Positions 23,478-47,100 of a DNA stretch of 64,000 bases are shown here, one piece after another (position 1 is the first letter of the stretch; each line of letters begins with the position of its first letter). The translations under genes and the position numbers were made by a program. Source of the stretch: an uncultured Verrucomicrobiae bacterium. Lineage in GTDB: Bacteria; Verrucomicrobiota; Verrucomicrobiia; Limisphaerales; Palsa-1400. The notes under the pieces are model-generated. The model saw nothing but the letters and a program-made list of their open reading frames with translations. It did not search any database and was not told where the DNA came from. The stretch covers positions 736,001-800,000 of the forward strand of contig CAVXRD010000002.1 of NCBI GenBank assembly GCA_963764165.1, read 5' to 3'.

Positions 23478-23523
23478 GGCTGAACTCGCTGCGCCGCGAA
23501 CTTAGAATGTAGGCCTGATGTTC

Positions 23524-25052: not shown

Positions 25053-25460
25053 CCCTGTGGACTTTTCTTGGGATTCCTCTGCGCACTCATCTTCTTTGCG
25101 CGAAAGTTTTTTTCCATATAAAATGGCATAGACGCATTCTGGCACGCGGTCGCCGAATAAAAAACCTACCGGAGGTTTTTCACCACGATTTTTTGGGAAA
25201 TATTGCATATTTTTGAATCTGGAACCACGGAACGACGGAAAAGGGCCTGCTGCAACCGGTTTGGAGGATTTCTCTGGCCGATTGGAACGGCGGTCAGTTT
25301 TTTGTGAATTTTTGTGATTTTGCTTGCAGGCACTCGCGCTCTTCTGAAATACATGAGCTCCGTAGGCATGAGAACCAACGTGGCCCGCAAAAGCGCTTCT
25401 TCCGATTTCAAACACGCAAATTTAACCGATAACAAAGCAGACTTTAAGAGACGCCGCCAA

Positions 25461-26903
25461 GTGTCTGCACAGCGAGCGAGGATAATTCTGCTTTTTCTGG
25501 GGATGCTTGTTCCCGGCCTGCGCGTGTTCGCAGGCGTGCCGGTGATGACGAGCGGTGGAAACACAAACCAGACGATTCTTGATTCCTGGTCGTTTGCCGA
25601 CACGACTTACTGGACAACTGACCAGGGATTTTCTCCCATTTCCTTCACTAATATCGCCGTTTCCTACGCGGGGCCGGGCAATTCCCTCTTGGTCGATTCG
25701 AGCAATGTGGCATCGCTTAGATATAATCTCGTTGAAACTTCGGGGGCCACAAATCTGCAAATTGAAAGCGAAGGCAGTTTCATGTTCTGGTTTTTCCCGG
25801 ATTGGGCCAGCACCAGCAACACGAATATGACCGGCTACGGCCCCGGTGTTGCCGGTCGATTGATTGAAGTGGGCGCAACCAACAGCCCGGCAGGTTGGTG
25901 GAGCTTCTTCATGGATGAAGGCGGGAACAATTTGTATTTCTCGGCCCAGGACGGCGCGGGCAATTTCACCAACTATCTTGCGGGGCCGATCTCGTTTTCC
26001 AGCAACACATGGCATCTGGTGGCGCTCTCGTGGACGAGCACCAACTCATCGCTTTACGTGGATGGCCAATGGGTCACCAATGGGACTGGTTTGAGCGTGT
26101 TGCCTCCTGCGGGTGCGCTCACCAATGGTTTTACGATTGGGAGCGATCTGGCCACTGGCACCAAGCAGATGCACGGGGCCATGAATGATCTCATCACCTT
26201 TAATTACGCCATTGAAACAAACCAGGTCGAAACGGAGTGGGTGCTTGGGGGCGCTTTTTACGGGATGAACCCGAACCTGATCGGAAATTTGACCAACGCA
26301 CCCTCCAACCCCACGATGGCGGTCGGATTTTACGATGTGGTGGGCGGCTCCGGATATTTGAACGTCGTTGGGACCGAATTCTCCAGTTGCACCAACGGTC
26401 CTGCCGTGGAGATTGTTTTCCCCGAGGTCTGGGGTGTGCCCGGCTCCAACAACATGAGCTTTATGATCGAAGGCGGGAATCCTTCGTGGCTGTATGACGT
26501 CTTTGCGATAGGCTCCCTGCCCAATCCCAAGACCAATGGCACTTGGACGTGGATGGGCCAGGCCTATCCGTGCTACACCAACGTCATTTATGGATTCACC
26601 AACCAGTCCATTTATCTGATTCTCGGCACGCCCCAAGATTCTGATGGTGATGGGCTTACAGATGCCTATAAATTGCTGGTATCGCATAGCAGCACGAATC
26701 AATTCGACACCCTCAACGACGGCATACCGGATGCCTGGAAAGTGCTCAACCGGCTGTGCACCACGAATCCTGGCACATGGGCGAATGACCCTGATGGCGA
26801 CGGGCTCGTGAATCTGCAAGAATATCTTTACGGCACCAATCCCAAAGTGAGCGAAGGCTTTGAGATATGGACTTCCGAGCCCACCGCTTCGGGAATCCCC
26901 TGA
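25461..26903 (+). CDS. Secreted LamG-like jelly-roll protein with C-terminal TSP3-like Ca-binding repeats
   Basis: Signal-like RARIILLFLGML..VFA; SF.FWF.P.W, WHLVALSW, LYVDG, G.MNDL; DSDGDGLTD, DGIPD.W, DPDGDGL.NLQEY..GTNP. Start uncertain (25368 also possible). Confidence 0.8.
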   Translation: MSAQRARIILLFLGMLVPGLRVFAGVPVMTSGGNTNQTILDSWSFADTTYWTTDQGFSPISFTNIAVSYAGPGNSLLVDSSNVASLRYNLVETSGATNLQIESEGSFMFWFFPDWASTSNTNMTGYGPGVAGRLIEVGATNSPAGWWSFFMDEGGNNLYFSAQDGAGNFTNYLAGPISFSSNTWHLVALSWTSTNSSLYVDGQWVTNGTGLSVLPPAGALTNGFTIGSDLATGTKQMHGAMNDLITFNYAIETNQVETEWVLGGAFYGMNPNLIGNLTNAPSNPTMAVGFYDVVGGSGYLNVVGTEFSSCTNGPAVEIVFPEVWGVPGSNNMSFMIEGGNPSWLYDVFAIGSLPNPKTNGTWTWMGQAYPCYTNVIYGFTNQSIYLILGTPQDSDGDGLTDAYKLLVSHSSTNQFDTLNDGIPDAWKVLNRLCTTNPGTWANDPDGDGLVNLQEYLYGTNPKVSEGFEIWTSEPTASGIP

Positions 26904-26925: not shown

Positions 26926-29900
26926 ATGAAGGCAACGAAAGCGAAATTGGCGTCATTGATTTTGGTCATCTTTGCGATGCTGATGGGGCTGCATTCGCAG
27001 CGCGCCTTTGCGGGCGCCTGCACGTGCGCCCGGTTTAACAGCAGCAAGGATTTTGGCTGCCGCCGTTCGGCGGGCGATACAGGCGCGCGGCCGTCTGGAG
27101 TCAGCGGCAATGGTGGAAACAATTGCGTCTGCTCGAATTGCACCGGAATGCCGCGCTGGAGCGTGAGTGAGCCTTACCTTAATCTCCACGTTGGGGACGA
27201 GCCGCTGAGCTACATGACTTCATCAGGGCAAAAACTGGCTTTCCGCTGGAACCTTGTGCAGCCCACGGGCGAGGGCTACTCGCTTCCGCTGGTGGATCAA
27301 GTGCCGGATCTCGCCTCGTCGTGGCCAAGTTGGCCATCCGCCTACTTCGGCTGCAATGTGCGTCTCAACAACGAGCTTATTCCTCCGTTTTACGAATCCT
27401 ATGCGGCGGCGGATTACCTGAATGATGTGTATTCCAGCGTCGTTTGGTATCCAAGCCCGGTCTGGACTCACAATTTCATGTCGGAAATCATCTTTTGGGA
27501 CAGCAACTGGGAGACGAACAACACGACAAACGCCGTATTCCAGAACGGCTATCAAGCCCTGGCTTTGGACCCTTCAGGAGGGTGTTATTATTTCACCAAG
27601 AACGTGACAAACCAAACCCTCAATCCCGCCACGCTTCTGACGAATGCCCAAACCGGAATCATTTTGCAGCCGTTATCCAGCAACGGCTATCCGACCGCTA
27701 CAACGAACGCGGAATGGTCGGGAGTTGCCTGGGGAAATTCCAGCAATGGGTTTCAATTGGTTTATCCTGATGGCAGCAAAGATGTCTACGGATTGGCGTT
27801 CTATGCACCCGGCTTGCTTGAACTCAGCTTCCCTAGCGGTAATTATGTCAAGTCTTCCAACTCGACGGCTTATGCCCTGTTGACGCAAAAGGTCGATCCG
27901 GCTGGAAGAGTGACTCAAATCGGATACGAGTACACGAATGTTCTTGCAATATGGCCTCATACGAACTCCTTCAACACGTTTCGTGTCCGCTATGTTATCG
28001 ATTCAGACGGCCGGACCAATTCGTTCGTATATCAGACCAATGGCGCCGTCTATCCGTGGCAGGTGTCAGAGGTTAATGATCCATTCGGCAGAAAGGCCAC
28101 GTTCACCTATGGATCTGCTGGGGGGGGGGACGGCGAGTTACCGGAATGGGATGTTCCCGGACAGCTCTATAGCATCACTGACACAGAGGGGATAAGCAAT
28201 TCTTTTAATTACAACGGTGTTGGCGATGGAGTCGAGGAGCTGAGTTCCATCACCACGCCATATGGGATGACCACGTTTAAGTATGCCTTCCAAACCGAAG
28301 GCGACACCACGGAAGGATACTCGATGCGGGCCATTTATGTTTCCGAGCCTGAAGGGGCAAATCAACTCTACGCCTACATTCACACGAATAATGTTGAAAG
28401 CAGCGCTGTCGCGCCCGCCGTTGCGGGCTGGGATTTTGACAATGGGGCTTCGACAAATGGAGGTGCGGATGTTGGCCTCTTCCACCGCAACAGTTTTTAT
28501 TGGGGACGCAGCCAGGCGCCCAATCTTTCTGTCTACGGTGAGCTGGGGACAAATCTTGCGGCGGCCATTGGGAATTTGACGGCCAGTGATTTGAAAATCG
28601 GACGGATGCGCCACTGGCTGCTCGACACCGACGGCATTTCCATCACGGAAGCCCTTTCCAGCGAGCGCGATCCGTCGCCTGATTCAGCGGGGTCGATTGA
28701 GGGCCAGCGAACTTGGTTCGCATACACCAACACTGGCCCTGCCGACGTGTTTACATCACCAAACATCGGATGCATCGCCCAAACGCTTCCCGATGGAACC
28801 AGCCAGTATACGCGGTACTCCTATTATCCGTCGGGCCTCGTGGGCACCAACGAACAAAGCTGCGCTTTTCCGGACGGCTCGATTGGCGAACTGGCCACCT
28901 CGTTCTACTACAATAACGGCAATAATGTTGATCTCACCGAAGTCGCCAATTCGATTGGCCAGTCTGTCAATGTCGTCTACAACACGAGGCACGAGCCGCT
29001 CCATATAACAAACGCGCTGGGATATGTCACAACGCTGGCTTGGGATAGTTCGTCCGGCAACCTGACCAGCGTTGTGCTGCCCACCGGCCAGTCAATTTCG
29101 CTAACTTACTATCCGTCGAATACGGGTGGTGTCATTACGAACACCAATTCGTTCTTGGAAAGTGTGACAGTCCAGCCCGAGAATCGCGTCACCACGATTA
29201 CGGACTACACCAATGCCCTGCCGCGCATCATCCATGCCACGGGCACCGCCGTGCCGGATTTGTGGATCACGAATATGTGGGACGGCTTGAGCCGGCTCGT
29301 CTGGGCGGGTTTTCAGGACGGCACCTCCATCTCGAACATCTACACCATTCTGGACTTGGGCGCTCATAAGGATCGTGTCAACAATTGGACAACCTTTGAT
29401 TATGATGGATTGGAGCATTTGATCGCGGTAACCAACGCATTGGGGAATGCGACGCGCTATGGTTGGTGCTCCTGTGGTTCATTGACCTCGATTACCAACG
29501 CCCTGGGCTACGTCACGCATCTCAATCGAGACAACCAGGACCGGCTAATAAGCGTGGTCTTTCCAGACACTTCAAGCCTCACCAACCAGTATGATCTAAC
29601 CGGAAGACTAACAAACCAATTGGATGGCCTCGGGAACTGGCGCCGGTACATGTATAATATCCAGGATCAGGTCGTTCAAGTCCAAAATTCGGCCGGCCAG
29701 ATATATGGAGCGGCCTATGACCCCGCCGGACGGGTTGTGCTCGCGACGAATGCCAATGGAGTGGTCGTCAGCAACAGCTTTGATTTGCTGAATCGCCTCA
29801 CGGAGCGTCGGTGGCTTGCTGGATCGAACATTTACTTTCTCTATAGTTCCAACGGTCTTATCGCCTTCACCAATCAAGACGGCCATTGGACTCATTTCGG

Positions 29901-32406
29901 CCGAGACGCCGCAGGACACTTGACGGCGCTGACCAACGCGGCGCAAACCGAGTCTTTCACCTACAACGGCCTGGATGAGCTTGCCAGCCTGACGGATGGC
30001 AACGGCCACACCACTTCGTGGACCTACAATCAGTACGGCTGGCTGACCAACAAAGGCACGGCTGCGAATGCCCATTTTGGATCTTACGGTTATGACTCGA
30101 ACGGAAGAATGACCAGCCGCTCGCAGGGCGGCGCGAACACCAGCATAACCTATGACGCGGTCGGCAATAGGACGTGCATCTTTTCGACCGATGGCTACAC
30201 CGACTTCAACGGGTTCACGAATTTGTATTACTACGACGCCGTCCATGAGCTGACCAACATGGTTGATGCATCCGGCACGACTGCCTTTACGTGGACAGCT
30301 ATGGGGCACTTGGCCAGCGAGTCTTCGCCTTGGGGAAGCGGGACCATGACCTACGGCTATAATCAGGGCCACCGCACCAATTTGTCGCTCTCTCAGCCCT
30401 CCGGATCGTGGTCGCAAAGTTACAGCTATGACAGTTCATGGCGAATGACCGGCATCGCCTCGCCTGCGGGCAGCTTCGGTTACAGTTATCCCGCGGGTGC
30501 CAATCAATATCAAGTCGGCGGCATATCCTTGCCCAATGGCGCGTCCATTGCGAACAGTTACGACAACCTCAGCCGCCTGACCAGCACTGCTCTGGCCGAC
30601 CATTGGGGCCATGTGCTGGATGGTTACGCCTACGGCTTGGACACGATGGGTTTGCGCACCAACATGACCCGGCAATTGGGCATGGCCACCAACAGCGTGA
30701 CCATCGGCTACGACGGGATTTCCGAATTGACCAGTTGGGCCGGCAAGGAGAGCAGCGGCCAGCCCCGGTTGAACGAGCAACTCCATTATGGCTACGACGC
30801 GGCGGGAAACATGCTCTATCGAAGCAACAATTGGACTTATTTGTCCATTGGCGGCTACAACAATATCAATGAGCCAAGCAATTACGCCGTTTATGGCAGC
30901 TTTACCGCCACTGGATCCCTGAGCGCGCCCGCCACCAATGTCACCGTCAATGGTTATGCCGCCGAGATTTACTCCGATCTGACCTTTGCCAACACCAATG
31001 TTGCCGTTGACTATGGCTACCCGATTTATTTCACCAATGTAGCCCAAAACATCTACGGCAGCAAAACGACCAATCAATACGACGTCAATTGGGTCACGGC
31101 GTTTGGTTACAATCCGGATGGCTCCACTGAAGGCGCGGGCGGAACGGAATTATTCTATGATTCGCTGGGCCGCGCGACCGACATCTCGGCTTACAGCGGA
31201 CCGACCTTGATCGATAATCGATTGACCCTGGACGGGCTGGGCCGCCTTCGGAGCGTTCAGCAATGGCAATTGGTCTATGAGGGGCCAGATGAGGGCAACA
31301 CGTGGGTCTACAGCAACGAAGTCCGCTACATCTATGACGGAATGACCGTGGTGCAGGAGCGGGATTCCAACAACGTGCCGCTGGTCACCTACACGCGCGG
31401 CCTGGACATGAGCGAAAGCCTGCAAGGCGCCGGCGGCATAGGAGGATTGCTGGCCCGGACTGACAGCAACGGCCCTGCCTTCTATCACGCCGACGGCAAC
31501 GGCAACATTACCGCGCTCATGGACAGCTACCAGCGCATCGCGGCCCGCTACGAGTATGACCCGTATGGACGGCTGCTGGGCAAATGGGGCCGCCTGGCGG
31601 ACGCCAACACCTACCGGTTTTCGAGCAAAGAGTATTTTCCAAACACCGGCTTATATAACTTTGGCTTCCGGTTTTACATGCCAGAAATGGCGCGCTGGCT
31701 GAATCGCGATCCGATTCAGGAAGCGGGAGGAGTTAATCTTTACGGCTTCGTGGGAAACAACCCGGTGAACGTAGTTGACCCGTATGGCTTGGACTTCTGG
31801 CAAAGCCAGTATTCCGTAGTTTATCAAGGGCCGCCTATTTCCAGCTACTCGGGTAGCGACTTTGCTGACGCTATTGACGACGTGACGAGCGCCGCAGTTC
31901 AAAGTTCGGAAAGCACCAGCACCACCGGGAACTTCATGGCGTATATGACCCAATCAGTAGCTTCCGGGCTGGCTGATATGCTCCGGTTGGGACAGGGAAC
32001 GGCGGACGCGACCTCAGCAAATAACGGCTGGGATCAAGCCATCGGAATCGCTCAAGACGTGGTCCGGGCCACTGGACTTTTTGACCTTCTCGGTGGCCTA
32101 GGCATAGGAGCTCTTCCGAAGCCCTGTAACCTTCACCGTCCCTATATTCGGCAAGGGGTTATGGACGACGTAAAAGCTCGTGCGCCGCGAGCCCCAGATG
32201 GCCGGTTTATTGATCCGAATACGCTGCAACCGACCGATGATCCTGTATTGGGTCACAAACCTGGATATGAGTTTTGGCGGTTGAAGGCAGCAGCAGAGGC
32301 GGAAAATGTTTCCCAACAGATGTTTAATGAGACGCTAAACAATCCCGAATTTTACCAGATTGAAGACAAAGCGGTCAATGCAAGCCACCAATATGAACAA
32401 CCGTAA
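26926..32406 (+). CDS. Full-length Rhs/YD-repeat polymorphic toxin with Sec signal peptide and C-terminal GH-E (HNH-fold) nuclease
   Basis: Signal peptide MKATKAKLASLIL...AFA; many YD repeats; Rhs core (GAGGIGGLLA, YEYDPYG, RWLNRDPI.E.GG.NLY.FV.NNPVN.VDPYGL); tip LGHKPGYE...NNPEFYQIE...NASHQYE. Confidence 0.92.
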   Translation: MKATKAKLASLILVIFAMLMGLHSQRAFAGACTCARFNSSKDFGCRRSAGDTGARPSGVSGNGGNNCVCSNCTGMPRWSVSEPYLNLHVGDEPLSYMTSSGQKLAFRWNLVQPTGEGYSLPLVDQVPDLASSWPSWPSAYFGCNVRLNNELIPPFYESYAAADYLNDVYSSVVWYPSPVWTHNFMSEIIFWDSNWETNNTTNAVFQNGYQALALDPSGGCYYFTKNVTNQTLNPATLLTNAQTGIILQPLSSNGYPTATTNAEWSGVAWGNSSNGFQLVYPDGSKDVYGLAFYAPGLLELSFPSGNYVKSSNSTAYALLTQKVDPAGRVTQIGYEYTNVLAIWPHTNSFNTFRVRYVIDSDGRTNSFVYQTNGAVYPWQVSEVNDPFGRKATFTYGSAGGGDGELPEWDVPGQLYSITDTEGISNSFNYNGVGDGVEELSSITTPYGMTTFKYAFQTEGDTTEGYSMRAIYVSEPEGANQLYAYIHTNNVESSAVAPAVAGWDFDNGASTNGGADVGLFHRNSFYWGRSQAPNLSVYGELGTNLAAAIGNLTASDLKIGRMRHWLLDTDGISITEALSSERDPSPDSAGSIEGQRTWFAYTNTGPADVFTSPNIGCIAQTLPDGTSQYTRYSYYPSGLVGTNEQSCAFPDGSIGELATSFYYNNGNNVDLTEVANSIGQSVNVVYNTRHEPLHITNALGYVTTLAWDSSSGNLTSVVLPTGQSISLTYYPSNTGGVITNTNSFLESVTVQPENRVTTITDYTNALPRIIHATGTAVPDLWITNMWDGLSRLVWAGFQDGTSISNIYTILDLGAHKDRVNNWTTFDYDGLEHLIAVTNALGNATRYGWCSCGSLTSITNALGYVTHLNRDNQDRLISVVFPDTSSLTNQYDLTGRLTNQLDGLGNWRRYMYNIQDQVVQVQNSAGQIYGAAYDPAGRVVLATNANGVVVSNSFDLLNRLTERRWLAGSNIYFLYSSNGLIAFTNQDGHWTHFGRDAAGHLTALTNAAQTESFTYNGLDELASLTDGNGHTTSWTYNQYGWLTNKGTAANAHFGSYGYDSNGRMTSRSQGGANTSITYDAVGNRTCIFSTDGYTDFNGFTNLYYYDAVHELTNMVDASGTTAFTWTAMGHLASESSPWGSGTMTYGYNQGHRTNLSLSQPSGSWSQSYSYDSSWRMTGIASPAGSFGYSYPAGANQYQVGGISLPNGASIANSYDNLSRLTSTALADHWGHVLDGYAYGLDTMGLRTNMTRQLGMATNSVTIGYDGISELTSWAGKESSGQPRLNEQLHYGYDAAGNMLYRSNNWTYLSIGGYNNINEPSNYAVYGSFTATGSLSAPATNVTVNGYAAEIYSDLTFANTNVAVDYGYPIYFTNVAQNIYGSKTTNQYDVNWVTAFGYNPDGSTEGAGGTELFYDSLGRATDISAYSGPTLIDNRLTLDGLGRLRSVQQWQLVYEGPDEGNTWVYSNEVRYIYDGMTVVQERDSNNVPLVTYTRGLDMSESLQGAGGIGGLLARTDSNGPAFYHADGNGNITALMDSYQRIAARYEYDPYGRLLGKWGRLADANTYRFSSKEYFPNTGLYNFGFRFYMPEMARWLNRDPIQEAGGVNLYGFVGNNPVNVVDPYGLDFWQSQYSVVYQGPPISSYSGSDFADAIDDVTSAAVQSSESTSTTGNFMAYMTQSVASGLADMLRLGQGTADATSANNGWDQAIGIAQDVVRATGLFDLLGGLGIGALPKPCNLHRPYIRQGVMDDVKARAPRAPDGRFIDPNTLQPTDDPVLGHKPGYEFWRLKAAAEAENVSQQMFNETLNNPEFYQIEDKAVNASHQYEQP

Positions 32407-32902
32407 ATCACAACATGAATTTCAAACTAACCATAATCTTCTCGCAGCCGTCGAAAAGAACGACATTCCAACAGTGCGACAACTGCTTGAAGCTGGCTAC
32501 GACGCAAACGAGAGAGATCGGGGGATGAGCACGCCTCTCATGAGAGCTGCCTTTCACGGATACAGTGACCTATTAACATTATTGCTTGGCTTTGGAGCAG
32601 ACGCGAATTTGGTAGACAAACTGGGCAAGACAGCCCTGCACTACGCGGCTCAGGAACAACACGAAACCGCAACCAAGATCCTTCTGGATGGCGGTGCCCC
32701 GCTAAACGCTCAAGACAATTACGGCAATGCCCCTCTGCACAACGCAGTTTATTATTCGCTCGGTCGCGGAGCAACAATTAGATTGCTCCGTGAGCGTGGT
32801 GCTAATGAAAACCTACAAAATGGCAGCGGCGTTACCCCGCTTGACCTTGCCAAAACGATCGCCAATTACGACGTGCTTCAGCATTTTGGTAACAAGAAGT
32901 AA
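32393..32902 (+). CDS. Ankyrin-repeat immunity protein (cognate to the GH-E toxin)
   Basis: TPLMRAA, GKTALHYAA, GNAPLHNAV, GVTPLDLA repeats; overlaps the toxin stop. Confidence 0.9.
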   Translation: MNNRKSQHEFQTNHNLLAAVEKNDIPTVRQLLEAGYDANERDRGMSTPLMRAAFHGYSDLLTLLLGFGADANLVDKLGKTALHYAAQEQHETATKILLDGGAPLNAQDNYGNAPLHNAVYYSLGRGATIRLLRERGANENLQNGSGVTPLDLAKTIANYDVLQHFGNKK

Positions 32903-32907
32903 TAAGT

Positions 32908-33288
32908 GAACTGTACGAGCCAACCATAGCACGCGAGGTGCCATGAAAATGAACGCTGGCGCAGCATCCTCCTTCGCCAAGGCTGCGGCGGGACAAGTCT
33001 CGGCTGCGAAACACATCTGCGATTGCATGAAAGCTCACCTACGTCAGACTGAACACCCAAACCCCTTGCCCCCTCGTGGCGCTGTCTCGGTTAACCATGG
33101 GCTTTTCACTCTCGGTGCCCGGATTGTCTTCGGTAATGGATACGACTGCCCCAGCTATGTCGAACAACATCGTGCCGGATTGCAATGCGCGGCGCAACTG
33201 ATAAGCTTTTCGCCGCATGATTTGGCGCGTCATCATGTTCTGGTTATTGGCGGCATTTTCCGCCGTGGCCGATTTGCCGCGTCACTCC
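32908..33288 (+). repeat. Inter-cassette repeat copy 1 (promoter-like motif + signal-peptide start)
   Basis: Starts GAACTGTACGAGCCAACCAT just after the immunity stop; TTGCAA-N16-TAAGCT-N9-ATG; encodes MIWRVIMFWLLAAFSAVADLPRHS. Confidence 0.9.
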
Positions 33289-35712
33289 TCTCTTGGCTCT
33301 CTTCAAGTCGAGCAGTTCGCCTATAACGGGTTGGATGAACTGAACCTTCTCGCGGATGGCAACAGCCACACCACCTCGTGGGCATTTAATCAATACGGCT
33401 GGCGCATAGGAAAGACAAATGCCACCGGGACAAACATCATCAATTACACTCGCGATGCCAATGGCCGGGTGACAAATCGTTGGATGATGGGCACCAACAC
33501 CGGTTACAAGCTGGACGCGGTTGGCAACGTCACCAACATCGTCTATCCCGCCACCAACATTGCGATCGGGTATGACGCCGTCAACCGGCCAACCAACATG
33601 ATGGACATTTCGGGCACGGCTTCGTTTACCTGGACGCCGACCAGCCACTTAGCCAGCGAAACGGGGCTGTGGGCCAGCGATACCACCAGCTACGGATACA
33701 GCCAGGGCCACCGCACCAACCTGAACCTTTCCCAACCCTCCGGCTCATGGAACCAAACTTATCTCTACGACGCCGCCTGGCGCATGACTGGGATTGGTTC
33801 GCCCGCTGGAAGTTTCACATATCAATACGCTAGCGGGGCCAATCAATACAGGGTTGGCGGCATTCTTCTTCCCAACGGCGCGAGCATCGTCAACCAGTAT
33901 GACAACCTGAGCCGGCTGACCAACACGGCACTCCTCGATCATTGGGGCCATGTGCTGGATGGTTACGTTTATGGCTTGGACGCCCTCGGGCAAAAGACGA
34001 ACCTTACCCGCCAGCTTGGGCTATCTACAAACAATGTGGCGGCGGGTTACGACGCCATCGGCCAAATAACGAATTGGGCGGGAAAGGAAGCTGGCGGCGC
34101 GAATCGCCAGAACGAGCAGATGGCCTACGGTTACGATCTGGCCGACAACCTGATTTCCCGCACCAACAACGCGCTGGTGCAAACGTTCACGGTGGATTCG
34201 TTGAATCAGTTAAACAACGTGTCTCGCAGCGGCACCTTCACCGTGAGCGGCGCATTGCCTGCTCCACCCGCCAGCGTCACGGTCAACGGAGCCGCCGCGC
34301 AAACCAACGGAGACTTCACCTTTGCCGCGACCAACAACACGCTGGCCAATGGCAATAACACCTTCACCATCATTGCCGAAAATATTTATGGCACCAATGT
34401 GACCAACGTTCTCTCGGTGAATCTGCCCGCCACCGTCACATTTCAATACGACGCCAACGGAAATTTAACTAGCGACGGAACAAGAACATTCCAATACGAC
34501 GCGGAAAACCAACTGACCAACGTCAATGTGAGCGGCCAATGGCAGGTTGGCTACGTATATGACGGCTTGGGGCGTCGGCGCATCCGCCGGGCTTACGCGT
34601 GGCAAAGCGGCTGGTCGCTCACCAACGAAACCCGCTACATTTACGACGGCCCCTTGGTCATTCAGGAGCGCGACACTAACAATAACATCCTAGTCACTTA
34701 CACTCGCGGACTGGACTTGAGCGGCAGCTTGTTTGGGGCGGGAGGGATCGGGGGATTGCTGGCCCGCACCGACACGAATGGCACGCTGTATTATCACTGC
34801 GATGGCGGTGGAAACATCACCGCGTTGATGGACGAATACCAGAGGATCGTCGCCCGCTACGAGTATGATGCCTACGGGCGGCTGATCGGCATGTGGGGTT
34901 CGCTGGCCTCAGCCAACACCTATCGCTTTTCGAGCAAGGAATACGACGCGCTGTCGGGCCTCTACTACTACGGACACCGCTATTACGACCCCGCGCTGCA
35001 AAGGTGGCCAAATCCCGACCCGATTGGAGAGGCGGGAGGGATTAATCTTTACCGAGCTATGAGAAATAATCCAATGCGGTGGGTTGATCCGTTTGGATTG
35101 GACAACATGTACAACATGGCTGCTGGTAACAACGCCCCTCCTTCAATGGTCGTTTCGGCCAATCCATCTCTCGGCGAAGCACCTACGGTGACCTATCAAG
35201 GAAGTCAAGGGGATCTTTTCCTGATAGGTGAATTTAGCACGGCTGCCGGAACCGTGGCCGCAGCCTCTATCATGGGGCTTATCGCGGGCGGCGTTCCACC
35301 AGACCAAGCCATTATGCTTGTAGAGCAAGCGTATGAAAAACTAGTTAACAATGCGTCCCCGCAGCCATCTCAGAACAATTGCCCTAATAATACTTCGCCG
35401 ATTAAAACCCCGCTAATGGGAATGGCGAAACCTAACAATGGTGGAGGGCCACCACATGGAGGGAGTCTTCATGATCAAATGATAAACGATTTTATTGACA
35501 ACCTTCCGGACGAGGCGGATAATATCAGGAAAAATCAGCAGCAAGTGGACTTTTTCGGTAATCCCGTCGGCAACAATAGGCCGGACGTTCAATATGATTT
35601 GGATGGCGTGCATTATAACATCGAATTCGATATGAATTGGATGAAAAGCATTACGCATTTTGATGAAATATTTGAGAATGACTCGGTAAGTTCAATCGAA
35701 ATCCACTTTTAA
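33217..35712 (+). CDS. Orphan Rhs toxin 1: repeat-derived signal peptide + truncated Rhs + putative REase-fold (PD-(D/E)xK-like) toxin tip
   Basis: Body homologous to the main Rhs from F.YNGLDEL onward; core ends PMRWVDPFGL; tip NQQQVD..G..VGNNRPDVQY...IEFD. Confidence 0.85.
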   Translation: MIWRVIMFWLLAAFSAVADLPRHSSLGSLQVEQFAYNGLDELNLLADGNSHTTSWAFNQYGWRIGKTNATGTNIINYTRDANGRVTNRWMMGTNTGYKLDAVGNVTNIVYPATNIAIGYDAVNRPTNMMDISGTASFTWTPTSHLASETGLWASDTTSYGYSQGHRTNLNLSQPSGSWNQTYLYDAAWRMTGIGSPAGSFTYQYASGANQYRVGGILLPNGASIVNQYDNLSRLTNTALLDHWGHVLDGYVYGLDALGQKTNLTRQLGLSTNNVAAGYDAIGQITNWAGKEAGGANRQNEQMAYGYDLADNLISRTNNALVQTFTVDSLNQLNNVSRSGTFTVSGALPAPPASVTVNGAAAQTNGDFTFAATNNTLANGNNTFTIIAENIYGTNVTNVLSVNLPATVTFQYDANGNLTSDGTRTFQYDAENQLTNVNVSGQWQVGYVYDGLGRRRIRRAYAWQSGWSLTNETRYIYDGPLVIQERDTNNNILVTYTRGLDLSGSLFGAGGIGGLLARTDTNGTLYYHCDGGGNITALMDEYQRIVARYEYDAYGRLIGMWGSLASANTYRFSSKEYDALSGLYYYGHRYYDPALQRWPNPDPIGEAGGINLYRAMRNNPMRWVDPFGLDNMYNMAAGNNAPPSMVVSANPSLGEAPTVTYQGSQGDLFLIGEFSTAAGTVAAASIMGLIAGGVPPDQAIMLVEQAYEKLVNNASPQPSQNNCPNNTSPIKTPLMGMAKPNNGGGPPHGGSLHDQMINDFIDNLPDEADNIRKNQQQVDFFGNPVGNNRPDVQYDLDGVHYNIEFDMNWMKSITHFDEIFENDSVSSIEIHF

Positions 35713-35722
35713 AGAGGTAAAT

Positions 35723-36343
35723 ATGTTTAACGGCTTTGAGGCTATACCAATTAATTGTCTTTGGGCAGAACCAGATAGCCTGATGGAATTTATTAGAGTA
35801 ATGAAATTAGAGAGTGGCTCTGAATGGAGCTTTGAGAAAAAGCCTTTAGATTTAAATAGTATCTACATTTCAGCTCCGCCTAAAGGCGGCGCGCACCTAC
35901 CGCGCTTTGCGGTTTGGCAGCCTAGCTGCATGTCGTTCGGCTCCGTTTTGATTGCTAATCACGAAGACGGACTTATTCAAACGATGCGGCATCTAAACAA
36001 AAGGCACGCAATTCCGTACTTTTCTGCCTTTCTCTCCCGCAATCATAGAAAGCAAGGCTTCTGCTATTTCGAGTATAGGGGCGAATCTCGGTCAGACCGG
36101 GTGGTATACGTCATACGCGACCCGAGATGGAAGTTCTTCGAAAAGGGCGGGAGGCTACCTTTTGAAAATCCTGAACGCTATGGGGCGAAGCGGATCGCAG
36201 ATCGCCTTACACCGTCCATTTTGGTCGAATATTTGAAGTCGCTCCATTGGAATCTCGAATCAGAAGATTTTTGGAAAAGCAAAAAGGACGCTTGGCTTGG
36301 ACGACGACTAAGCTTTAAAAGAGGACCGGTCGACATCCCATAA
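35723..36343 (+). CDS. Putative immunity protein for orphan toxin 1
   Basis: 206-aa lower-GC ORF 10 nt after the toxin stop, with GAGG RBS. Confidence 0.75.
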   Translation: MFNGFEAIPINCLWAEPDSLMEFIRVMKLESGSEWSFEKKPLDLNSIYISAPPKGGAHLPRFAVWQPSCMSFGSVLIANHEDGLIQTMRHLNKRHAIPYFSAFLSRNHRKQGFCYFEYRGESRSDRVVYVIRDPRWKFFEKGGRLPFENPERYGAKRIADRLTPSILVEYLKSLHWNLESEDFWKSKKDAWLGRRLSFKRGPVDIP

Positions 36344-36351
36344 AATAAACG

Positions 36352-36768
36352 GAACTGTACGAGCCAACCATAGCACGCGGGGTGCCATGAAAACGAACGC
36401 TGGCGCAGCATCCTCCTTCGCCAAGGCTACGGCGGGACAAGTCTCGGCTACGAAACACATCCCCAATTGGATGAAAGCTCGCCTACATCAAACTGAACAC
36501 CCAACCCGCCGTCGCTGCGCTATGGCGCGGCAAGACGCCTGCCCACCTCGTGGCGCTGGTTCCCTCGCCAAAGCTTTAGCGGCGGCGGGTGCCGGTCAAC
36601 CAAGGGCATTGTCGGAGGTTTTTCACTCTCGGTGCCCGGATCCTCTTCGGTAATGGATGCGACTGCTCCAGCTATGTCCGTAAGCATCATGCTGGATTGC
36701 AATGCGCGGTGCACCCGCTAAACTCAACTCCGCATGATATGGCGCGTCATTTTCTGCTGGCTGCTGGC
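36352..36768 (+). repeat. Inter-cassette repeat copy 2
   Basis: Same 5' boundary; TTGCAA(36697)-N16-TAAACT-N9-ATG(36734); encodes MIWRVIFCWLLA. Confidence 0.9.
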
Positions 36769-36844
36769 GCTGCATTCGCAGCGCGCCTTTGCGGGCGCAT
36801 GCACGGAAAGGGGTCGCACATAACCACATATTTTGCGATTGACT
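36734..36844 (+). pseudogene. Collapsed Rhs remnant (repeat leader fused to a piece of the main Rhs signal peptide, then deleted)
   Basis: MIWRVIFCWLLA-LHSQRAFAGACT-ERGRT*; 36769-36805 is 36/37 identical to 26988-27024. Confidence 0.65.
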
Positions 36845-36926
36845 GATCGAGAATGCAGCCGCAGCCTGCCATTCGCATAGCCGAGGATCACGCAATATGC
36901 TATTAAGTGGAACTGCCCCCTTTCTT

Positions 36927-37223
36927 ATGAATAATAGAAAAGAAGAGGTATTAGTGGCACTTCAGCAAGCGCTACTGGGCGAGGTTAGTGCTCGCTTGCG
37001 GGCGGTCACGGTTACTTACAACGAGACAAGCGTGCACTTTGATTGTTATTACGATGGAGAAATTGCCGAGGACGACCTGGAGTCAATGTCATGTGTGGAA
37101 GGTGAACTAATTGCTTGGTTTCCAGAAACCCATAAGGTTACATATCAGGTACATCGAAAAGATTATCCGACTTTGGTTCCTAAGGACAAAGTGTGCGCGT
37201 TTTATCGAAAGGAGCCTCTTTAA
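36927..37223 (+). CDS. Orphan immunity-like protein (no intact cognate toxin)
   Basis: 98-aa lower-GC ORF in the immunity position; ALLGEV...LRAV, YYDGEI.E.D.E...C.E.E. Confidence 0.75.
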   Translation: MNNRKEEVLVALQQALLGEVSARLRAVTVTYNETSVHFDCYYDGEIAEDDLESMSCVEGELIAWFPETHKVTYQVHRKDYPTLVPKDKVCAFYRKEPL

Positions 37224-37231
37224 GTGAATTT

Positions 37232-37574
37232 GAACTGTACGAGCCAACCATGGCACGCGAGGTGCCAAGGAAAAACGATTTGGCGCATGGAACAGCTTGT
37301 CGGCTACGAAACATATCCGGAATTGGATGAAAGCTCGCCCACCGCGTAGTGTTGTCCCGGTCAACCAGAGGCACCGTCGGAGGTTTTTTCACTCTCGGTG
37401 CCCGGATGGTCTTCGGTAATGGATGCGACTGCTCCAGCTATGTCGACCGACATCATGCCGGATTGCAATGCGCGGCGCAACTGTTAAACTTCTCACCGCA
37501 TGATTTGGCGCGTCATTTTCTGCTGGCTGCTGGCGACAACGTTCGCCCATGCCAGCCTTCCGCGCCATTCTGCC
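37232..37574 (+). repeat. Inter-cassette repeat copy 3 (shortest)
   Basis: Same 5' boundary; TTGCAA(37463)-N16-TAAACT-N9-ATG(37500); encodes MIWRVIFCWLLATTFAHASLPRHSA. Confidence 0.9.
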
Positions 37575-39329
37575 ATGGGCTTGCGCACGAACATGACCCG
37601 GCAATTGGGCATGGCCATCAACAGCATCGCCATTGGTTACGACGGGATTTCTGAAGTGACCAGTTGGATCGGAAAGGAGACCACCGGACAGCCGCGCTGG
37701 AACGAACAGATCCATTACAGCTACGACGCGGCGGGAAACATGCTCTATCGAAGCAACAACTGGACTGTCCTTTCGATTGGCTCCTACAACAACATTAATG
37801 AGCCGAGCGATTATGTCACTTCCGGTTCATTTACCGCCGTCGGTTCCCTGAGCGCGCCCGCCACCAACGTCACCATCAACGGCTACGCCGCCGAGGTCTA
37901 CTCCGACCTGACCTTCGCGAATACGAATATTGCCATTGATTATTACCAGACCGGTTATTTCACCAACGTCGCCCAAAACATCTACGGACTCAAAACGACC
38001 AACCAATACGCCGTCACTTGGATCAATCCATTTGATTACAATCCAGACGGCTCGACGGACGGCGCCTCGTCGATTTATTTCACCTATGATGAGTTTGGCC
38101 ATGTGGCCGACATCTCCTATGGGGACGCATCCGGCTACCACTACGCGCAATTGACCTGGGATGGCCTGGGCCGGTGCCGCAGTGTGCAGTATTATACCTT
38201 GACCAACGATTCCACTGGCAACTGGTGGGTGGGGCCGTTCAATCAAGTCCGGTATATTTACGACGGAATGGCCGTGGTGCAGGAGCGGGATTCCAACAAC
38301 ACGCCGCTGGTCACCTATACCCGCGGATTGGACATGAGCGGGAGCCTGCAAGGAGCTGGAGGAATAGGCGGATTGCTGGCCCGCACCGACAGCAACGGCC
38401 CGGCTTTCGATCACGCTGATGGGAACGGCAATGTCACCGCCCTCATGGACAGCTACCAGCGCATCGCGGCGCGATATGAATATGACCCGTATGGAAGGCT
38501 GCTGGGCAAATGGGGCCGATTGGCAGATGCCAACACCTACCGGTTTTCGAGCAAGCAATATTTCCAGGCCTTCGGCATGTATAACTTTGACTGCCGCTTT
38601 TACATGCCAGAAATGGCTCGCTGGCCAAATCCAGACCCGATTGGAGAAGCAGGCGGGATTAACCTTTATGGGTTTGTTGGGAACAATCCCGTCAACTTTG
38701 TCGATACTTTTGGCTTAACTACTTATTACCGAGAAACTCCATTCAACCAAGATCAAGCCGGCTCGTATGGGCCATACTCCTTTACTGTCGACGACGGCTC
38801 CGACAACGCAGAATATTCAAGTTGGACCACTGACCCTGAGTTTTTCGGTAACGATGCGATGGAGACGCAGGACGGGATGCTCATGGCTATGGTTGCACCT
38901 ATAGCCGACCCTGTCGGAATGGCCTTTGGCGCGGCCTTTGAATTTCTTTCGAAACCTATCGCGGACGCCCTCGAGTCCCTCGGTTTGCGAAAGCCTCCCA
39001 TTCCAAAAACGCCTAAAGCGTCTCCGTGTCCGGTATCAATTAAACCTGAGCCCAAGATCACCCTTTATCGTCAGGGAAATCCTAACACCGTTTATTCCCC
39101 CACCAGAGCTACATCGTTAAGCAAGAGCCCCGACCTGATGCATTACGATCCGAAAGGCCAGCTTTTGCAATTTGAAATTCCTCAAAGCGTTTACAATCAG
39201 TGGATGAAGGATGGTCTAATTGATACCTACAGCGACCTTCACGCACTCTCAGGAATAATCACATCAGAAGTGAAAGTTTTGCCACCAGCATCTGGACAAC
39301 TGAATCAATATCAAGTTAAACCTCAATGA
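37500..39329 (+). CDS. Orphan Rhs toxin 2: repeat-derived signal peptide + truncated Rhs + putative ADP-ribosyltransferase-like tip
   Basis: From 37575 highly similar to the main Rhs from 30646 (MGLRTNMTRQLGMA...); core ends PVNFVDTFGL; tip TLYR...TSLS...SEV. Confidence 0.85.
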   Translation: MIWRVIFCWLLATTFAHASLPRHSAMGLRTNMTRQLGMAINSIAIGYDGISEVTSWIGKETTGQPRWNEQIHYSYDAAGNMLYRSNNWTVLSIGSYNNINEPSDYVTSGSFTAVGSLSAPATNVTINGYAAEVYSDLTFANTNIAIDYYQTGYFTNVAQNIYGLKTTNQYAVTWINPFDYNPDGSTDGASSIYFTYDEFGHVADISYGDASGYHYAQLTWDGLGRCRSVQYYTLTNDSTGNWWVGPFNQVRYIYDGMAVVQERDSNNTPLVTYTRGLDMSGSLQGAGGIGGLLARTDSNGPAFDHADGNGNVTALMDSYQRIAARYEYDPYGRLLGKWGRLADANTYRFSSKQYFQAFGMYNFDCRFYMPEMARWPNPDPIGEAGGINLYGFVGNNPVNFVDTFGLTTYYRETPFNQDQAGSYGPYSFTVDDGSDNAEYSSWTTDPEFFGNDAMETQDGMLMAMVAPIADPVGMAFGAAFEFLSKPIADALESLGLRKPPIPKTPKASPCPVSIKPEPKITLYRQGNPNTVYSPTRATSLSKSPDLMHYDPKGQLLQFEIPQSVYNQWMKDGLIDTYSDLHALSGIITSEVKVLPPASGQLNQYQVKPQ

Positions 39330-39655
39330 TGAGCGTATTCAAAAGCAAAGACATATTCTGCTGTGCTGGTTTCAAAAATCGGATTGAGGCCGCTGGCGGG
39401 CGCGGAATTGCGATTCTAGCGAATCAAACTGCAACTGGAGTTATATTTCTACTGCAGTCGCGTGGAATTGCGTTCGAAGATGTAAAAAGAATTGAACCAA
39501 ATTCCGATTTGCCAGACATTACGATAAACGTTTCCTACGAGGTAGGACTTCAATACTGTCCATGGTGCGGTCGTCAACTTCAAGAGCTAGTTGATGCTTC
39601 GCCAGCGGCCTTCGAGCAGCTCGCGAACAACAATAGATGCTTTTTGATGAAGTGA
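39326..39655 (+). CDS. Putative immunity protein for orphan toxin 2 (Cys-rich, possible Zn ligand set)
   Basis: ATGA overlap with the toxin stop; FCC...YCPWCG motifs. Confidence 0.78.
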   Translation: MMSVFKSKDIFCCAGFKNRIEAAGGRGIAILANQTATGVIFLLQSRGIAFEDVKRIEPNSDLPDITINVSYEVGLQYCPWCGRQLQELVDASPAAFEQLANNNRCFLMK

Positions 39656-40091
39656 ACTGTACGAGCCAACCATAGCACGCGGGGTGCCATGAAAACGAAC
39701 GCTGGCGCAGCATGCTCCTTCGCCAAGGCTACGGCGGGACAAGTCTCGGCTACGAAACACATCCCCAATTGGATGAAAGCTCGCCTACATCAAACTGAAC
39801 ACCCAACCCGCCGTCGCTGCGCTATGGCGCGGCAAGACGCCTGCCCACCTCGTGGCGCTGGTTCCCTCGCCAAAGCTTTAGCGGCGGCGGGTGCCGGTCA
39901 ACCAAGGGCATTGTCGGAGGTTCTTTCACTCTCAACGCCCGGATCGTCTTCGGTAATGGATGCGACTACTCCAGCTATGTCGACCGACATCATGCCGGAT
40001 TGCAATGCGCGGAGCAACTGATAAGCTTCCCGCCGCATGATTTGGCGCGTCATTTTCTGCTGGCTGCTGGCGACAACGTTCCACGCCATTC
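39654..40091 (+). repeat. Inter-cassette repeat copy 4 (terminal, no Rhs attached)
   Basis: Near-identical to copy 2 over the 5' ~270 bp; TTGCAA(40000)-N16-TAAGCT-N9-ATG(40037); supplies the TGA stop of the upstream immunity gene. Confidence 0.9.
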
Positions 40092-40161
40092 CGCATTCGC
40101 AAGATTCTCCTCCCTTGACCGATTCAACTCGGCAGCGTGAAGGTCCAGCCCGAGAACCGCG

Positions 40162-40650
40162 TCAGACCAGTTCAAGCATATCGGCTTCCAATTTCACGGC
40201 GGCGGCCTGATTGATGAAATCCAGGCGCAAAATGACCGTGCTCATTCCGAGCCTTTTCTCCACCCAGCCTTCGATTCCCTGCAAGGGACCCGCTTTGATG
40301 CGGACCCTCTTGCCTTCTTCGATGGCCGGCGCCAGGGACACGCCGAGCTTGGCATCAAGGGCCAGCAGAATATCGCCCAATTGCCTGCTGAACGTTTCCT
40401 GGTCGAAGACGGTGAGCAGATTGGCAATATGATCGCTCTGCCGGACCGAGTCCGCCTGGGATCGCTCGCAGCGAATAAACACATAGCCTGGGAACAAGGG
40501 CTTCTCGAAGACCACCGTTTTCCCGCGGTATTTATGGGCGGACTCGAAGCACGGGAGCACTGCGGAAATGGAATTCCGCCTGCAAAACTCAGCAATCTTC
40601 TTTTCGCGGCGCGGCCGGGCGTGCGCAACGAACCAGTTCATTTCTGACAC
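40162..40650 (-). CDS. NusG/RfaH/UpxY-family transcription antitermination factor
   Basis: WFVAHARPRREKK, PLFPGYVF (NGN domain); G.RVRI.AGPL.G.EG (KOW domain). Confidence 0.92.
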   Translation of the reverse strand: MSEMNWFVAHARPRREKKIAEFCRRNSISAVLPCFESAHKYRGKTVVFEKPLFPGYVFIRCERSQADSVRQSDHIANLLTVFDQETFSRQLGDILLALDAKLGVSLAPAIEEGKRVRIKAGPLQGIEGWVEKRLGMSTVILRLDFINQAAAVKLEADMLELV

Positions 40651-44120: not shown

Positions 44121-47100
44121 TTACTTGCAGGTGAACGAACTGCTGCTCGAGAAGGATCCGCAATAGTTGTTGCCGCCATAGCCGCAACCGCCGCCTTGGC
44201 AGCCCGACTTGCAGTTTTCCGGCGTGCCGGCGCAGTCGTTGTTATTATATCCGCAGTAATTCTGCTGGCAGGCCTTCACGGAAACTGAGCCGCAATTGCT
44301 CAAGTTCTGATTGTAGCAGGCCGCGCCCCATTGCCAGGCGCAATTCACGTTGGTCGTGCTGCAGCTAAACGTGCCCGTCCAGCAGACCGATTTGCAGTTC
44401 GCGAAATCGGAATTCCAAGGAATTCCAGTGCCGCAAAGGAAAGCCTGGCTGTCGCCAGCCGAGGGAATCGTCGTGCTCCATCCGCTCCCGGTATAATAAG
44501 CGCTGCCGGACGAGCAGTTGGTGTATTCCACCTGGCAGTTCGGAACGGGATAGTTATAGACTTTGCCACTGGCTCCCGTGATCGTGATGGTCGCGTTCTG
44601 GCAGTAAACCGTGCATGACTTGCCTGGGTTCGCGGAAAGATGCGCATTGCACCAGAGGTAACCGCCATACGGGTTGCAGGAGTTGAAGTTGCCGCAGATG
44701 GTGTTCGTCGTTCCCTTGGTGGTGACGGCGGTGACGACTGAAGCCGTGTTGGTGGCTGACGCCCCGCTGGCCACAGAGCCAATCGCGGAAGCCACATTCG
44801 TCAATTGGCAGACATTCGAGCCCACCGTGTAATTATACGCAAATGTATAGCCTTGTCCCGACGCCACATTGGTCTTCGTGAAGATCGTGCCGCCGAGGAG
44901 CGCATCGACCACAGTCAAATTCTCCGCGCTCTGACCCACGTTGGTCACGGCAAACGTGTAGGTGATGACCGAGCCGATCGGCGCGCAGGTGGGACCCGAG
45001 AGGGTCAGACTCACAGCAGGCGGAGGTTGCACTACCACTGTCACCGTGCTCGATGCGGATAAGCCAGCCGTGTTGGTGATGGAGTATTGGAAGATCACCG
45101 TTCCAGAAAACCCACCCGTGGCCGTGAAGACAAGGTTTGTGCCCGATCGGACCACCGAGCCAGTGCCGCCAGAGGGCTGGCTGAACGTCGCAATGCCAAT
45201 CTTGAGCGCCGGGCTATTGCCATCCGAATCGTGGGATAGCACATTAATGGTGACTGGAGGAGCGCCTTCCTGCGTCGTTACAGTTACCGGGTTGGCCACC
45301 GGAGGCAGAGGTGTCACAGTGACAGTCACAGTGGAGCTCGCACTCAACCCCGCCGAGTTGGTGATCGAATAGGCGAACACAGATGTTCCAACAAAGCCCG
45401 ATTTGGGAGTGAACACGAGGTTGCCGCCGGATTGCGTTACGGTTCCATTGGTTGGCTGGGCGAAGCTTGAGATGGCAATCGGCAGCGCGGGGCGATTCGG
45501 GTCGTAGTCGTTGCCCAGCACACTGATCGTGACCGCGGAATTTTCAGCAGTCGAGGCCGAATTAGGAGTCGCGACAGGGGCCACTGGGCAGGCGCTGAAC
45601 GAGCAATAGCCCGATCCAGTCCAGTTGCCGCAGTAATTGTTGCCACCGTATCCGCAGCCGCCAGCCTGGCAGTTGGGTTTGCAATTCTCAGGCGTGCCAG
45701 CGCAGTCGGCGGAGGAATAATAGCCTTGATAGTTGCCCCAGCCTCCCCAATTGCCGTAGTTGCCCCAGCCGTTGCCGTAGCTGCCGCCGTATCCGCAAGC
45801 GGTCTGGTAGCAGGCCTTGACGCCAAAGCCGTTGTAATTAGTGAGGTTAGTGTTGTAGCAGGAACTGCCCCACTGCCAACTGCAGCTAACCCCGGGGGTA
45901 TCGGAGCAGAACGTGCCCGTCCACGAGACGGATTGGCAATTGGCAAAGGCCGATTGCCACGGAATGGCGCAGCCAGAGAGGAAAATCTGGCTGTCACCGT
46001 AGGACGGCGCGAACGTGTTCCAGTTCGTTCCGTCATACAGGCAGTTGCCGGTTGTGTTGGTTTGGTTAAAGATAATTTTGCCGTTCGGCACCGGATAGGT
46101 GTAGCTCTTGCCGTTCGAGCAGTTCAGTGTGATCGACGCATTCTGGTAGTAAATAGCGCAATTCTGCCCCGGTGTCGCCGCGATATGGGCGTTGAACCAC
46201 ACGCAACCGTTGTTGGGATTGCAGGAATTGAAGCTGCCATAAATCTGGCTGGTCACGCCCGCAGTCGTAATGGCCGTAATCGCCGTTTGAGTATTGGTGG
46301 CGGACAACCCGTTCGCCTGAACCACAATCGCCGAGGCGGTGTTCGTCACGAATCCCGAGCTAAGCGACGTTGCGTAGGTGTTGGTGAACACGAATCCAAC
46401 GCCAGCCGCCACATTCGTCTTCGAGAAGATTGTTCCGCCGAGCAACGGATCAACGACGGTCAGGTTGACGCTGACGGAATCGGTATTCGTGACGGCATAC
46501 ACGTAAGAGATGGTGCCATCGCAAACCACCGTTGGGGGCGCTGTCAAATTCAAGACCACGGTCGGAAGCGACGTCACCAGCACCGTCACAGTTGTTGTTG
46601 AGGCCAGGCCAAGTGTGTTCGTAATCGTGTAATTAAAGGTCGCGGCGCCCGCGAAGCTCGAGTTGGGTGAGAAGACGAGGTTCGTGCCGGAAAGCGTTAC
46701 CGTTCCTTCGGACGCCACAGCCGGCTGGGTATAGCTCGAGATTGCAATCGGAAGTGCAGGCGAATTCTGGTCGTAATCGTTGGCCAGCACCGAGATCGAA
46801 ACCGGCACGCCGCCTTGAGTTGAAGCGCTGTCGGCAACCGCGACCGGTGGCAGCGGCGGCGGCGTCACCACCACCGTCACGATGCTGGTGGAGGACAATC
46901 CAGCCGAATTCGTGATCGTGTATTGGAAGGACACTGTTCCGGTAAAACCCGTTGCAGGCTTGAAGAGCAGGTTCGTGCCAGAATAAGAAACCACGCCTTG
47001 GCCGGTCGGTTGATTAAAGCCCGAGATCAAAATGGGAAGCATCGGTGAATTCTGATCCGTATCATTCGCCAGCGAATTGATGACAACCGGCGTGTTTTCC

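Follow-up and report, generated by a model that had tools for sequence, protein, structure and literature searches.

The stretch of DNA analysed here, called the window, comprises 64,000 nucleotides (nt) of contig CAVXRD010000002.1 from an uncultured Verrucomicrobiae bacterium (assembly GCA_963764165.1). It contains a full-length Rhs toxin gene followed by an array of Rhs orphans, and the array is punctuated by four copies of a two-part repeat. Most of the repeat corresponds to a structured RNA on the minus strand, which was overlooked in an earlier note on this DNA; the remainder carries a predicted promoter and a leader that resembles a signal peptide. The features are listed in Table 1. Residue numbers of the main Rhs refer to the 1848-residue open reading frame (ORF) that opens at 26860, G000 is the genome that holds the window (7.0 Mb), and L-numbers denote loci fetched from other genomes.

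Table 1. Features of the Rhs array in the window. REP, repetitive extragenic palindrome; CM, covariance model; REase, restriction endonuclease.
Feature	Coordinates	Strand	Remarks
LamG/TSP3-like gene	25314..26903	+	Pfam Laminin_G_3; upstream of main Rhs
Main Rhs	26926..32406	+	predicted signal peptide, YD repeats, Rhs core, GH-E nuclease tip
Ankyrin-repeat protein, predicted immunity to main tip	32393..32902	+	Pfam Ank_2; position
Structured RNA copy 1	32906..33160	-	CM R1 177 bits; predicted +1 at 33160; lacks one hairpin, has one REP-like insertion
Predicted back-to-back promoters 1	33161..33216		leader promoter: TTGCAA at 33180, TAAGCT at 33202-33207
Orphan 1	33217..35712	+	leader MIWRV..AVA/DLPRH in frame with Rhs body, Rhs core, REase-like tip
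Predicted immunity gene 1	35723..36343	+	no family match; GC 0.465
Structured RNA copy 2	36350..36677	-	CM 165 bits; two REP-like insertions
Predicted promoter and leader 2	36678..36823	+	29-residue ORF; microhomology joint to signal-peptide region of main Rhs
Lone immunity-like gene 2, no toxin	36897..37223	+	GC 0.45; start 36897 or 36927
Structured RNA copy 3	37230..37443	-	CM 143 bits; 31-nt deletion takes out conserved core segment
Predicted back-to-back promoters 3	37444..37499
Orphan 3	37500..39329	+	leader in frame with Rhs body, Rhs core, ADP-ribosyltransferase-like tip
Predicted immunity gene 3	39326..39655	+	start overlaps stop of orphan 3 (ATGA)
Structured RNA copy 4	39652..39980	-	CM 177 bits; two REP-like insertions
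Predicted promoter and decayed leader 4	39981..40164	+	out of frame with 31-nt Rhs-like scrap at 40134-40164
UpxY/RfaH-type NusG paralog bounding array	40162..40650	-

The main Rhs gene is full length, with matches to RHS_repeat, TIGR03696 and GH-E, and is followed by the ankyrin gene. Downstream are Rhs fragments of variable length with differing low-GC tips, together with immunity-like ORFs, which is the composition of an orphan array. The four repeat copies reported earlier at 32908, 36352, 37232 and 39654 were confirmed. They are 68–94% alike and share a GAAC start, at a distance of -2 to 8 nt from the stop codon before it, as expected from the claim of a common boundary near the immunity stop. 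The genome has no other full copies. The leaders of copies 1 and 3 are indeed fused in frame to truncated Rhs bodies at differing joints, giving ORFs of 831 and 609 residues whose Rhs parts begin at main residues 1029 and 1263 respectively. The tips of these two orphans have been named from weak Atlas matches, as leads only. Copy 2 is in frame with the main Rhs signal-peptide region, as had been stated (46 nt, 26979-27024, 93%), but a stop after 29 codons prevents a productive Rhs fusion, and the sole gene that follows is an immunity-like ORF of 99–108 residues. Copy 4 has a deletion in its leader and joins, out of frame, a 31-nt scrap that resembles main Rhs 29161-29191 (87%) and ends at the stop codon of the convergent UpxY/NusG gene. 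The statement that every cassette follows such a repeat was too strong, copies 2 and 4 having no toxin. The reported three in-frame junctions out of three, with a chance of 1 in 27, do not stand either, because copy 4 was omitted from the count; the tally for the window is three of four in frame and two of four productive.

Alignment of the fetched loci splits the repeat into a segment of approximately 245 nt and a promoter-leader segment. The first of these was analysed using 106 de-duplicated copies. The alifold consensus has a folding energy of -16.1 kcal/mol on the minus strand and -0.5 kcal/mol on the plus strand, and the highest-ranking covarying Watson-Crick pairs form nested helices. 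The RNA is multi-branched, with 10 helices. A structure of 53 pairs, applied to 20 sequences, has 84.8% of cells paired and two-sided changes in 33 of the 53 pairs. None of 500 shuffles reaches this level of pairing, in a test that ignores the relatedness of the sequences, and slid partners give 35–44%, a control that is inflated because the structure was drawn from the sequences tested. There is no match to the RNA in Rfam 15 (six matches at chance level, with E above 3), and ARAGORN detects no tRNA or tmRNA in the element. The segment was also considered as a decayed coding sequence, for example the remnant of an integrase or transposase; this was rejected, as no frame has codon periodicity.

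The 3' end of the RNA is sharp, with the consensus GTTC-A-N-T-T (A in 67%). The joint on the Rhs side is ragged. A convergent stop codon lies within 15 nt of this end in 27 of 101 copies (17 of the 43 that are linked to Rhs), compared to 10% of genomic WGAAC sites. At the other end, a TTG is found 37–38 nt upstream of a conserved 5' CATAG in 58 of 130 copies (38 nt in window copy 1), with an A-rich region near -12 and otherwise variable sequence, which predicts that the minus-strand RNA has its own sigma-70 promoter.

A diverged second subtype of the RNA, with the 3' end TATTGGTTGCC and no GTTC, is found in L028, L036, L044, L045, L058 and L027 (6913-7163). It shares the same promoter and usually the leader too, and in L027 both subtypes occur within one array. 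In different genomes, the same few loops of the RNA have taken up REP-like palindromes and a recurring insert of about 65 nt; examples are window 32965-33000 and 39810-39890, and L021, L035, L115, L204 and L029. When copy 4 was used as BLAST query, 37 of 61 genomes were matched, many of them only by way of short REP-like insertions, which have further copies elsewhere in the genome. In L032 (1-2116) a group II intron with a reverse transcriptase, recognised by eye, lies inside the RNA just after a conserved segment resembling UCAGU..GUAG.

On the other strand, the leader is preceded by promoter-like boxes at fixed positions. In 16 of 17 leader copies a TTG starts 37 nt ahead of the ATG, and in 15 of the 17 a TAnnnT ends 9 nt ahead of it. 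Across the genome, in genes far from an upstream gene, the TTG-N-TAnnnT motif peaks 6–9 nt before the ATG, and the leader boxes therefore match the near-leaderless promoters typical of this host. Where both are present, 57 nt separate the leader ATG from the predicted +1 of the RNA. The earlier description of the repeat as a portable promoter with signal peptide thus has support in silico, but a strict sigma-70 scan gave no site in any copy. Single changes in the leader are 12 synonymous and 7 non-synonymous in frame 0, compared to 3 and 10, and 2 and 11, in the other frames, as expected of a protein sequence, here an 18-residue sequence resembling a signal peptide. Among 42 leaders, R4 is present in 40, positions 5–15 are hydrophobic, and small residues occupy positions 16 and 18 in 37, with A-x-A in 29. 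By inspection the leader has the make-up of a signal peptide for Sec export and signal peptidase I, with a basic n-region, a hydrophobic h-region and small residues at -3 and -1. Many leaders run on into a short filler resembling SVASVASC, and one unfused form (P0028) ends after 37 residues.

Several observations on leaders can be added. The leader contains a 15-nt direct repeat with a near-palindromic core (33219-33233 and 33271-33285, codons 2-6 and 19-23, 52 nt apart), possibly an operator; the 10-nt palindromic box repeated in it has no genome-wide enrichment. In L046 (8841) the first five leader codons are in frame with a secreted-type protein of 496 residues that is not Rhs. In L052 (5593-6276) and L108 (4720-4860 and 6140-6300), unrelated signal-peptide-like leaders that begin at the RNA 5' end are fused directly to the last Rhs-core motif. 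Orphans in genomes G004 and G002 (L024, L025, L026 and L056) have another N-terminus in common, MTLLQY.., and begin near main residue 1266, not far from the joint of window orphan 3.

The frames at the leader joints are not random. At the DNA level there are 20 leader copies, and in 10 of them the leader is followed by an Rhs match in blastx, in frame 1 in every case. The one Rhs join out of frame is that of window copy 4, giving 10 of 11 in frame; random frames at other loci, which would have spoken against the earlier proposal, were thus not found. If two copies in L036 are counted as one event, 9 of 10 are in frame (P=3.6e-4 against 1/3). Profile searches yielded 54 leader proteins, of which 46 continue into Rhs sequence, one is a spurious match and none is a full-length Rhs, although the protein libraries are biased towards long ORFs that stay in frame, and five of these 54 were profile seeds. 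The estimated joints are spread over main residues 839-1498 and extend into other Rhs clades. Microhomology is present at the joints in L036, L057, L059 and window copy 2; in L225 such a joint falls inside the RNA. In L036 and L059 the orphan starts are 92–97% identical to the local main Rhs.

Matches to the RNA model occur in 58 of 151 genomes of the order (1–10 per genome) and in 8 of 151 genomes drawn from the phylum; by BLAST the number is 17 of 401. A 39-nt RNA pattern is found in at least 123 metagenome stretches, and 80 of the matches listed have flanks. Two RNA patterns gave no matches in viral contigs, and none was found in plasmids. Relatives that share the leader are labelled Verrucomicrobiae or Limisphaerales.

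A repeat scattered without a link to Rhs would also have spoken against the earlier proposal, and this is not what the loci show. Among the 76 copies whose sequence extends 2 kb or more past the RNA 3' end (three duplicate loci dropped, and genome loci hand-picked from the best or multi-copy matches), 41 have an Rhs core within 2.6 kb beyond that end, always on the opposite strand and never on the same one. For metagenome loci alone the figure is 20 of 29. In a clustering of the neighbours, Rhs is the only recurrent family (41 loci). Genes scanned near the RNA 3' ends include SUKH, Imm53, Imm33, DMP19 and ankyrin, and 26 of the 41 have no Pfam match. RNA copies separate cassettes in L089, L108, L166, L219 and L222, and arrays of small genes in L225 and L226. 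Stand-alone copies adjoin housekeeping genes in L031, L075 and L084, which counts against a strict link.

No partner for mobility could be identified at the array. TnpB was not found in this genome (PF07282), nor over the cut-off in five high-copy genomes (NF040570), and reverse transcriptase (PF00078) was not found in this genome; the one in L032 belongs to the intron inserted in the RNA. The genome has 22 matches to tyrosine recombinases (PF00589), none in the window, and four to IS110 and 10 to Y1 transposases, none at the array. An IS110-like ORF, recognised by eye, adjoins one copy only (L072). An integrase cluster lies near only three loci in the neighbour clustering, and an integrase fragment is found in L237. 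Neither pairing of flanks with a guide or bridge nor target-site duplication exceeded shuffles in 104 copies, and searches for empty sites found none. Elsewhere in G000, a 3'-terminal scrap of the RNA, about 50 nt long (C4:238788-238838), lies directly after an immunity-like membrane ORF, among three genes for Y1 transposases resembling the REP-associated tyrosine transposases; similar genes adjoin copies in L022, L040 and L116.

Starting from the observed module anatomy, base-pair covariation, frames, junction spread and microhomologies, we hypothesise that the two-part module makes each displaced toxin-immunity pair an independently transcribed unit, in which the immunity protein is kept in the cell and the toxin half is exported. 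We give this reading a probability of roughly 55%. The simplest account of how the cassettes form is the displacement model set out in the accessible parts of two published studies (PMC2935791, PMC5361080). The module would sit directly behind an immunity gene. Either the locus would duplicate or a new tip-immunity pair would enter, anchored by homology in the Rhs body. The second joint would be illegitimate and guided by microhomology, connecting the module to the resident Rhs body at a variable point. The outcome would be the module, then Rhs from that point to its end, the old tip and the old immunity gene. Tandem duplication with the same joint would give an identical picture. The four joints in the window, at main residues of about 40, 768, 1029 and 1263, would fit displacement.

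An unfused leader would appear as a short ORF of about 37 codons, and therefore only in-frame joints located past the A-x-A site and before the stop would yield a translated and exported product. Selection would then retain in-frame, exported fusions. In L036, two orphans with one common junction have a dN/dS (the ratio of non-synonymous to synonymous divergence) of 0.11 at a synonymous difference (pS) of 0.52, which speaks for this reading. Translation through the orphan would keep the downstream immunity gene expressed, and would route a tip that targets the cytoplasm out of the cell. The orphan toxin and immunity genes are thus likely to be expressed, with the toxin half exported, as far as can be judged from their sequences. 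The RNA was probably carried along behind the immunity genes, and probably serves as a shared downstream homology arm.

A number of observations weigh against this reading. Two of the four modules in the window have no toxin, and all four window RNA copies carry deletions or REP-like insertions. Single RNA copies fold no better than shuffles (z from -2.2 to +1.7). With just 56% identity to the main Rhs, orphan 1 is not a recent displacement from it. The dN/dS values of 0.1–0.2 may predate the fusion or reflect gene conversion. The Rhs core is kept in just 19 of the 54 leader proteins, many of which are short, and the library bias noted above applies to the whole set. Rhs cores are found in 64 of 93 RNA-negative genomes, compared to 52 of 58 RNA-positive ones (Fisher P 0.003, cross-tabulated by hand and with kin not independent). 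The second Rhs orphan array of G000 has neither RNA nor leader module. The displacement model also does not fully explain why the RNA 3' end lies so near to stop codons.

That last feature bears on the proposal that the RNA, or a folded single-stranded DNA, is an active device for capture or mobility, with its 3' end cut or ligated by a host enzyme acting in trans and joining new tip-immunity modules, as in integrons or recombinase-associated (rAID) clusters but without a linked integrase. The sharp GTTC-A-N-T-T end, and a closeness to convergent stops above that of genomic WGAAC sites, would suit it; so would the nested partial 3'-end repeats (L133, L204, L115, L043 and L035), the copies between cassettes (L089, L108, L166, L219, L225 and L226) and the patchy multi-copy spread of the RNA across genomes of the order. 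However, a capture device would have to be reconciled with Rhs as the sole recurrent neighbour family, the lack of TnpB and reverse transcriptase matches in this genome and the negative searches for guides, target duplications and empty sites, and a deletion bias between two selected convergent genes could equally tighten the end. We therefore consider it unlikely. The most far-reaching version, a recombinase-free RNA-based cassette system in Verrucomicrobiota in which the RNA 3' end captures modules and the leader yields secreted mini-toxins, seems decidedly unlikely. At the opposite extreme, the repeat might be an inert stretch, made up of an intergenic spacer and the 5' end of some unrelated gene downstream, that was passively duplicated, with silent orphans. 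Each new cassette would bring its donor's downstream flank, and 9 of the 20 leader copies precede DNA without an Rhs match, which also counts against our preferred reading. Yet no parent gene was found (44 matches in a 50%-representative library and 16 in a 90% library), the long leader proteins are all Rhs fusions apart from the one spurious match, the frames are non-random, and the promoter boxes and the A-x-A site are conserved, making passive carriage very improbable.

The main selected function might instead be attack, with the orphans acting as secreted mini-Rhs toxins that give each cell several tips and kill neighbouring bacteria. Orphans 1 and 3 have an intact core and tip, as do 19 database proteins, the unrelated leaders in L052 and L108 are likewise joined to the core tail, and some junction families are common to diverged intact proteins (P0009 with P0021, and the L036 pair). 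The joints, however, fall at widely differing places and remove the greater part of the YD shell, and nuclease-like or ADP-ribosyltransferase-like tips would need to enter a target cell. Short or decayed fusions are numerous. Partial shells, frequent decay and a copy 2 that would drive an immunity-like gene alone lead us to favour upkeep of immunity over use as a weapon; attack as the main function is, on these grounds, somewhat unlikely.

The array resembles known Rhs and contact-dependent inhibition (CDI) orphan arrays (PMC3150448, PMC2935791; accessible text), in which a full Rhs gene with its immunity gene likewise precedes core fragments that vary in length and carry differing tips and immunity genes, and for which the displacement model was proposed. 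The accessible part of PMC3150448 describes cdiA orphans as generally lacking initiation signals and being co-transcribed from upstream. Compared with these descriptions, the window orphans have a start codon (ATG), the boxes of a predicted promoter and an in-frame leader predicted to be a signal peptide, and an RNA gene separates them. The array is thus an Rhs orphan array, atypical by its initiation signals, that contains an RNA family absent from Rfam 15. The second array of G000 (C1:153545-174149) is of the usual orphan kind; its open frame of 5299 codons is accompanied by immunity-like genes and by two orphans of 742 and 427 residues. For type VI secretion (T6SS) clusters of Vibrio, the accessible text of PMC5361080 proposes that homology-facilitated illegitimate recombination keeps old immunity genes downstream. 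Delivery there is by the T6SS, rather than by the Sec export predicted here, and no conserved RNA or leader module appears in that part of the paper.

Several families of mobile elements use structured RNA or sharp ends. The omega-RNA of IS200/IS605 insertion sequences is structured, about 250 nt long and sharp at its 3' end, has TnpB or IscB as partner, and goes with a right end of TCAA or TCAC and a defined left end. In the bridge RNA of IS110, variable loops match target or donor DNA, and a DEDD recombinase is adjacent. The RNA described here is similar to both in size, structure and sharp 3' end, and TCA(A/C/T) resembles the IS200/IS605 right ends. It differs from them in the absence of TnpB from five high-copy genomes, of a recurring adjacent transposase, of a guide matching the flanks and of an Rfam match. 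IS91-like elements have a sharp end at GTTC and a Y2 transposase. The RNA has a GTTC end, and the search for a Y2 transposase gave one weak PF04986 match (E 4.5e-4) over 58 positions within a 1010-residue frame. Retrons and group II introns have a linked reverse transcriptase. The attC site of integrons is a single imperfect hairpin. Recombinase-associated acquired interbacterial defence (rAID-1) clusters of Bacteroidales, defined in the accessible text of bioRxiv 10.1101/471110 by a 5' XerD-like recombinase, share with integrons and with this array the separation of immunity-type cassettes by repeated intergenic sequences. Here, no recombinase is linked and the repeat is a multi-branched 245-nt RNA with a promoter, rather than an attC-like hairpin.

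Around the array, the Rhs locus is flanked by polysaccharide-synthesis-like genes (20797-24573, named by eye) and by the UpxY/RfaH-type antiterminator gene. Homologs of the LamG/TSP3-like gene precede main Rhs genes in L038, L057, L059 and L086 (tblastn), and its product is a possible delivery partner of the main Rhs. At 44121-48845, on the minus strand, the window encodes a repeat-rich secreted-type protein of 1574 residues.

A search of full-text literature, covering main texts and few of the subscription journals, found no description of this RNA or of leader-bearing orphans, and large RNAs tied to polymorphic toxin loci were not found there either. Strong covariation marks the structured RNA of the repeat, which is phylum-wide and lies strictly antisense behind Rhs immunity genes. 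If this RNA does aid cassette capture, it would address how new tips join, which is left open in the accessible text of PMC2935791. Rhs orphans are generally treated as silent reservoirs. The in-frame fusion of a leader at many independent Rhs positions suggests that orphans are selectable for their own expression and export, and the question of what orphans do before they recombine becomes directly testable.

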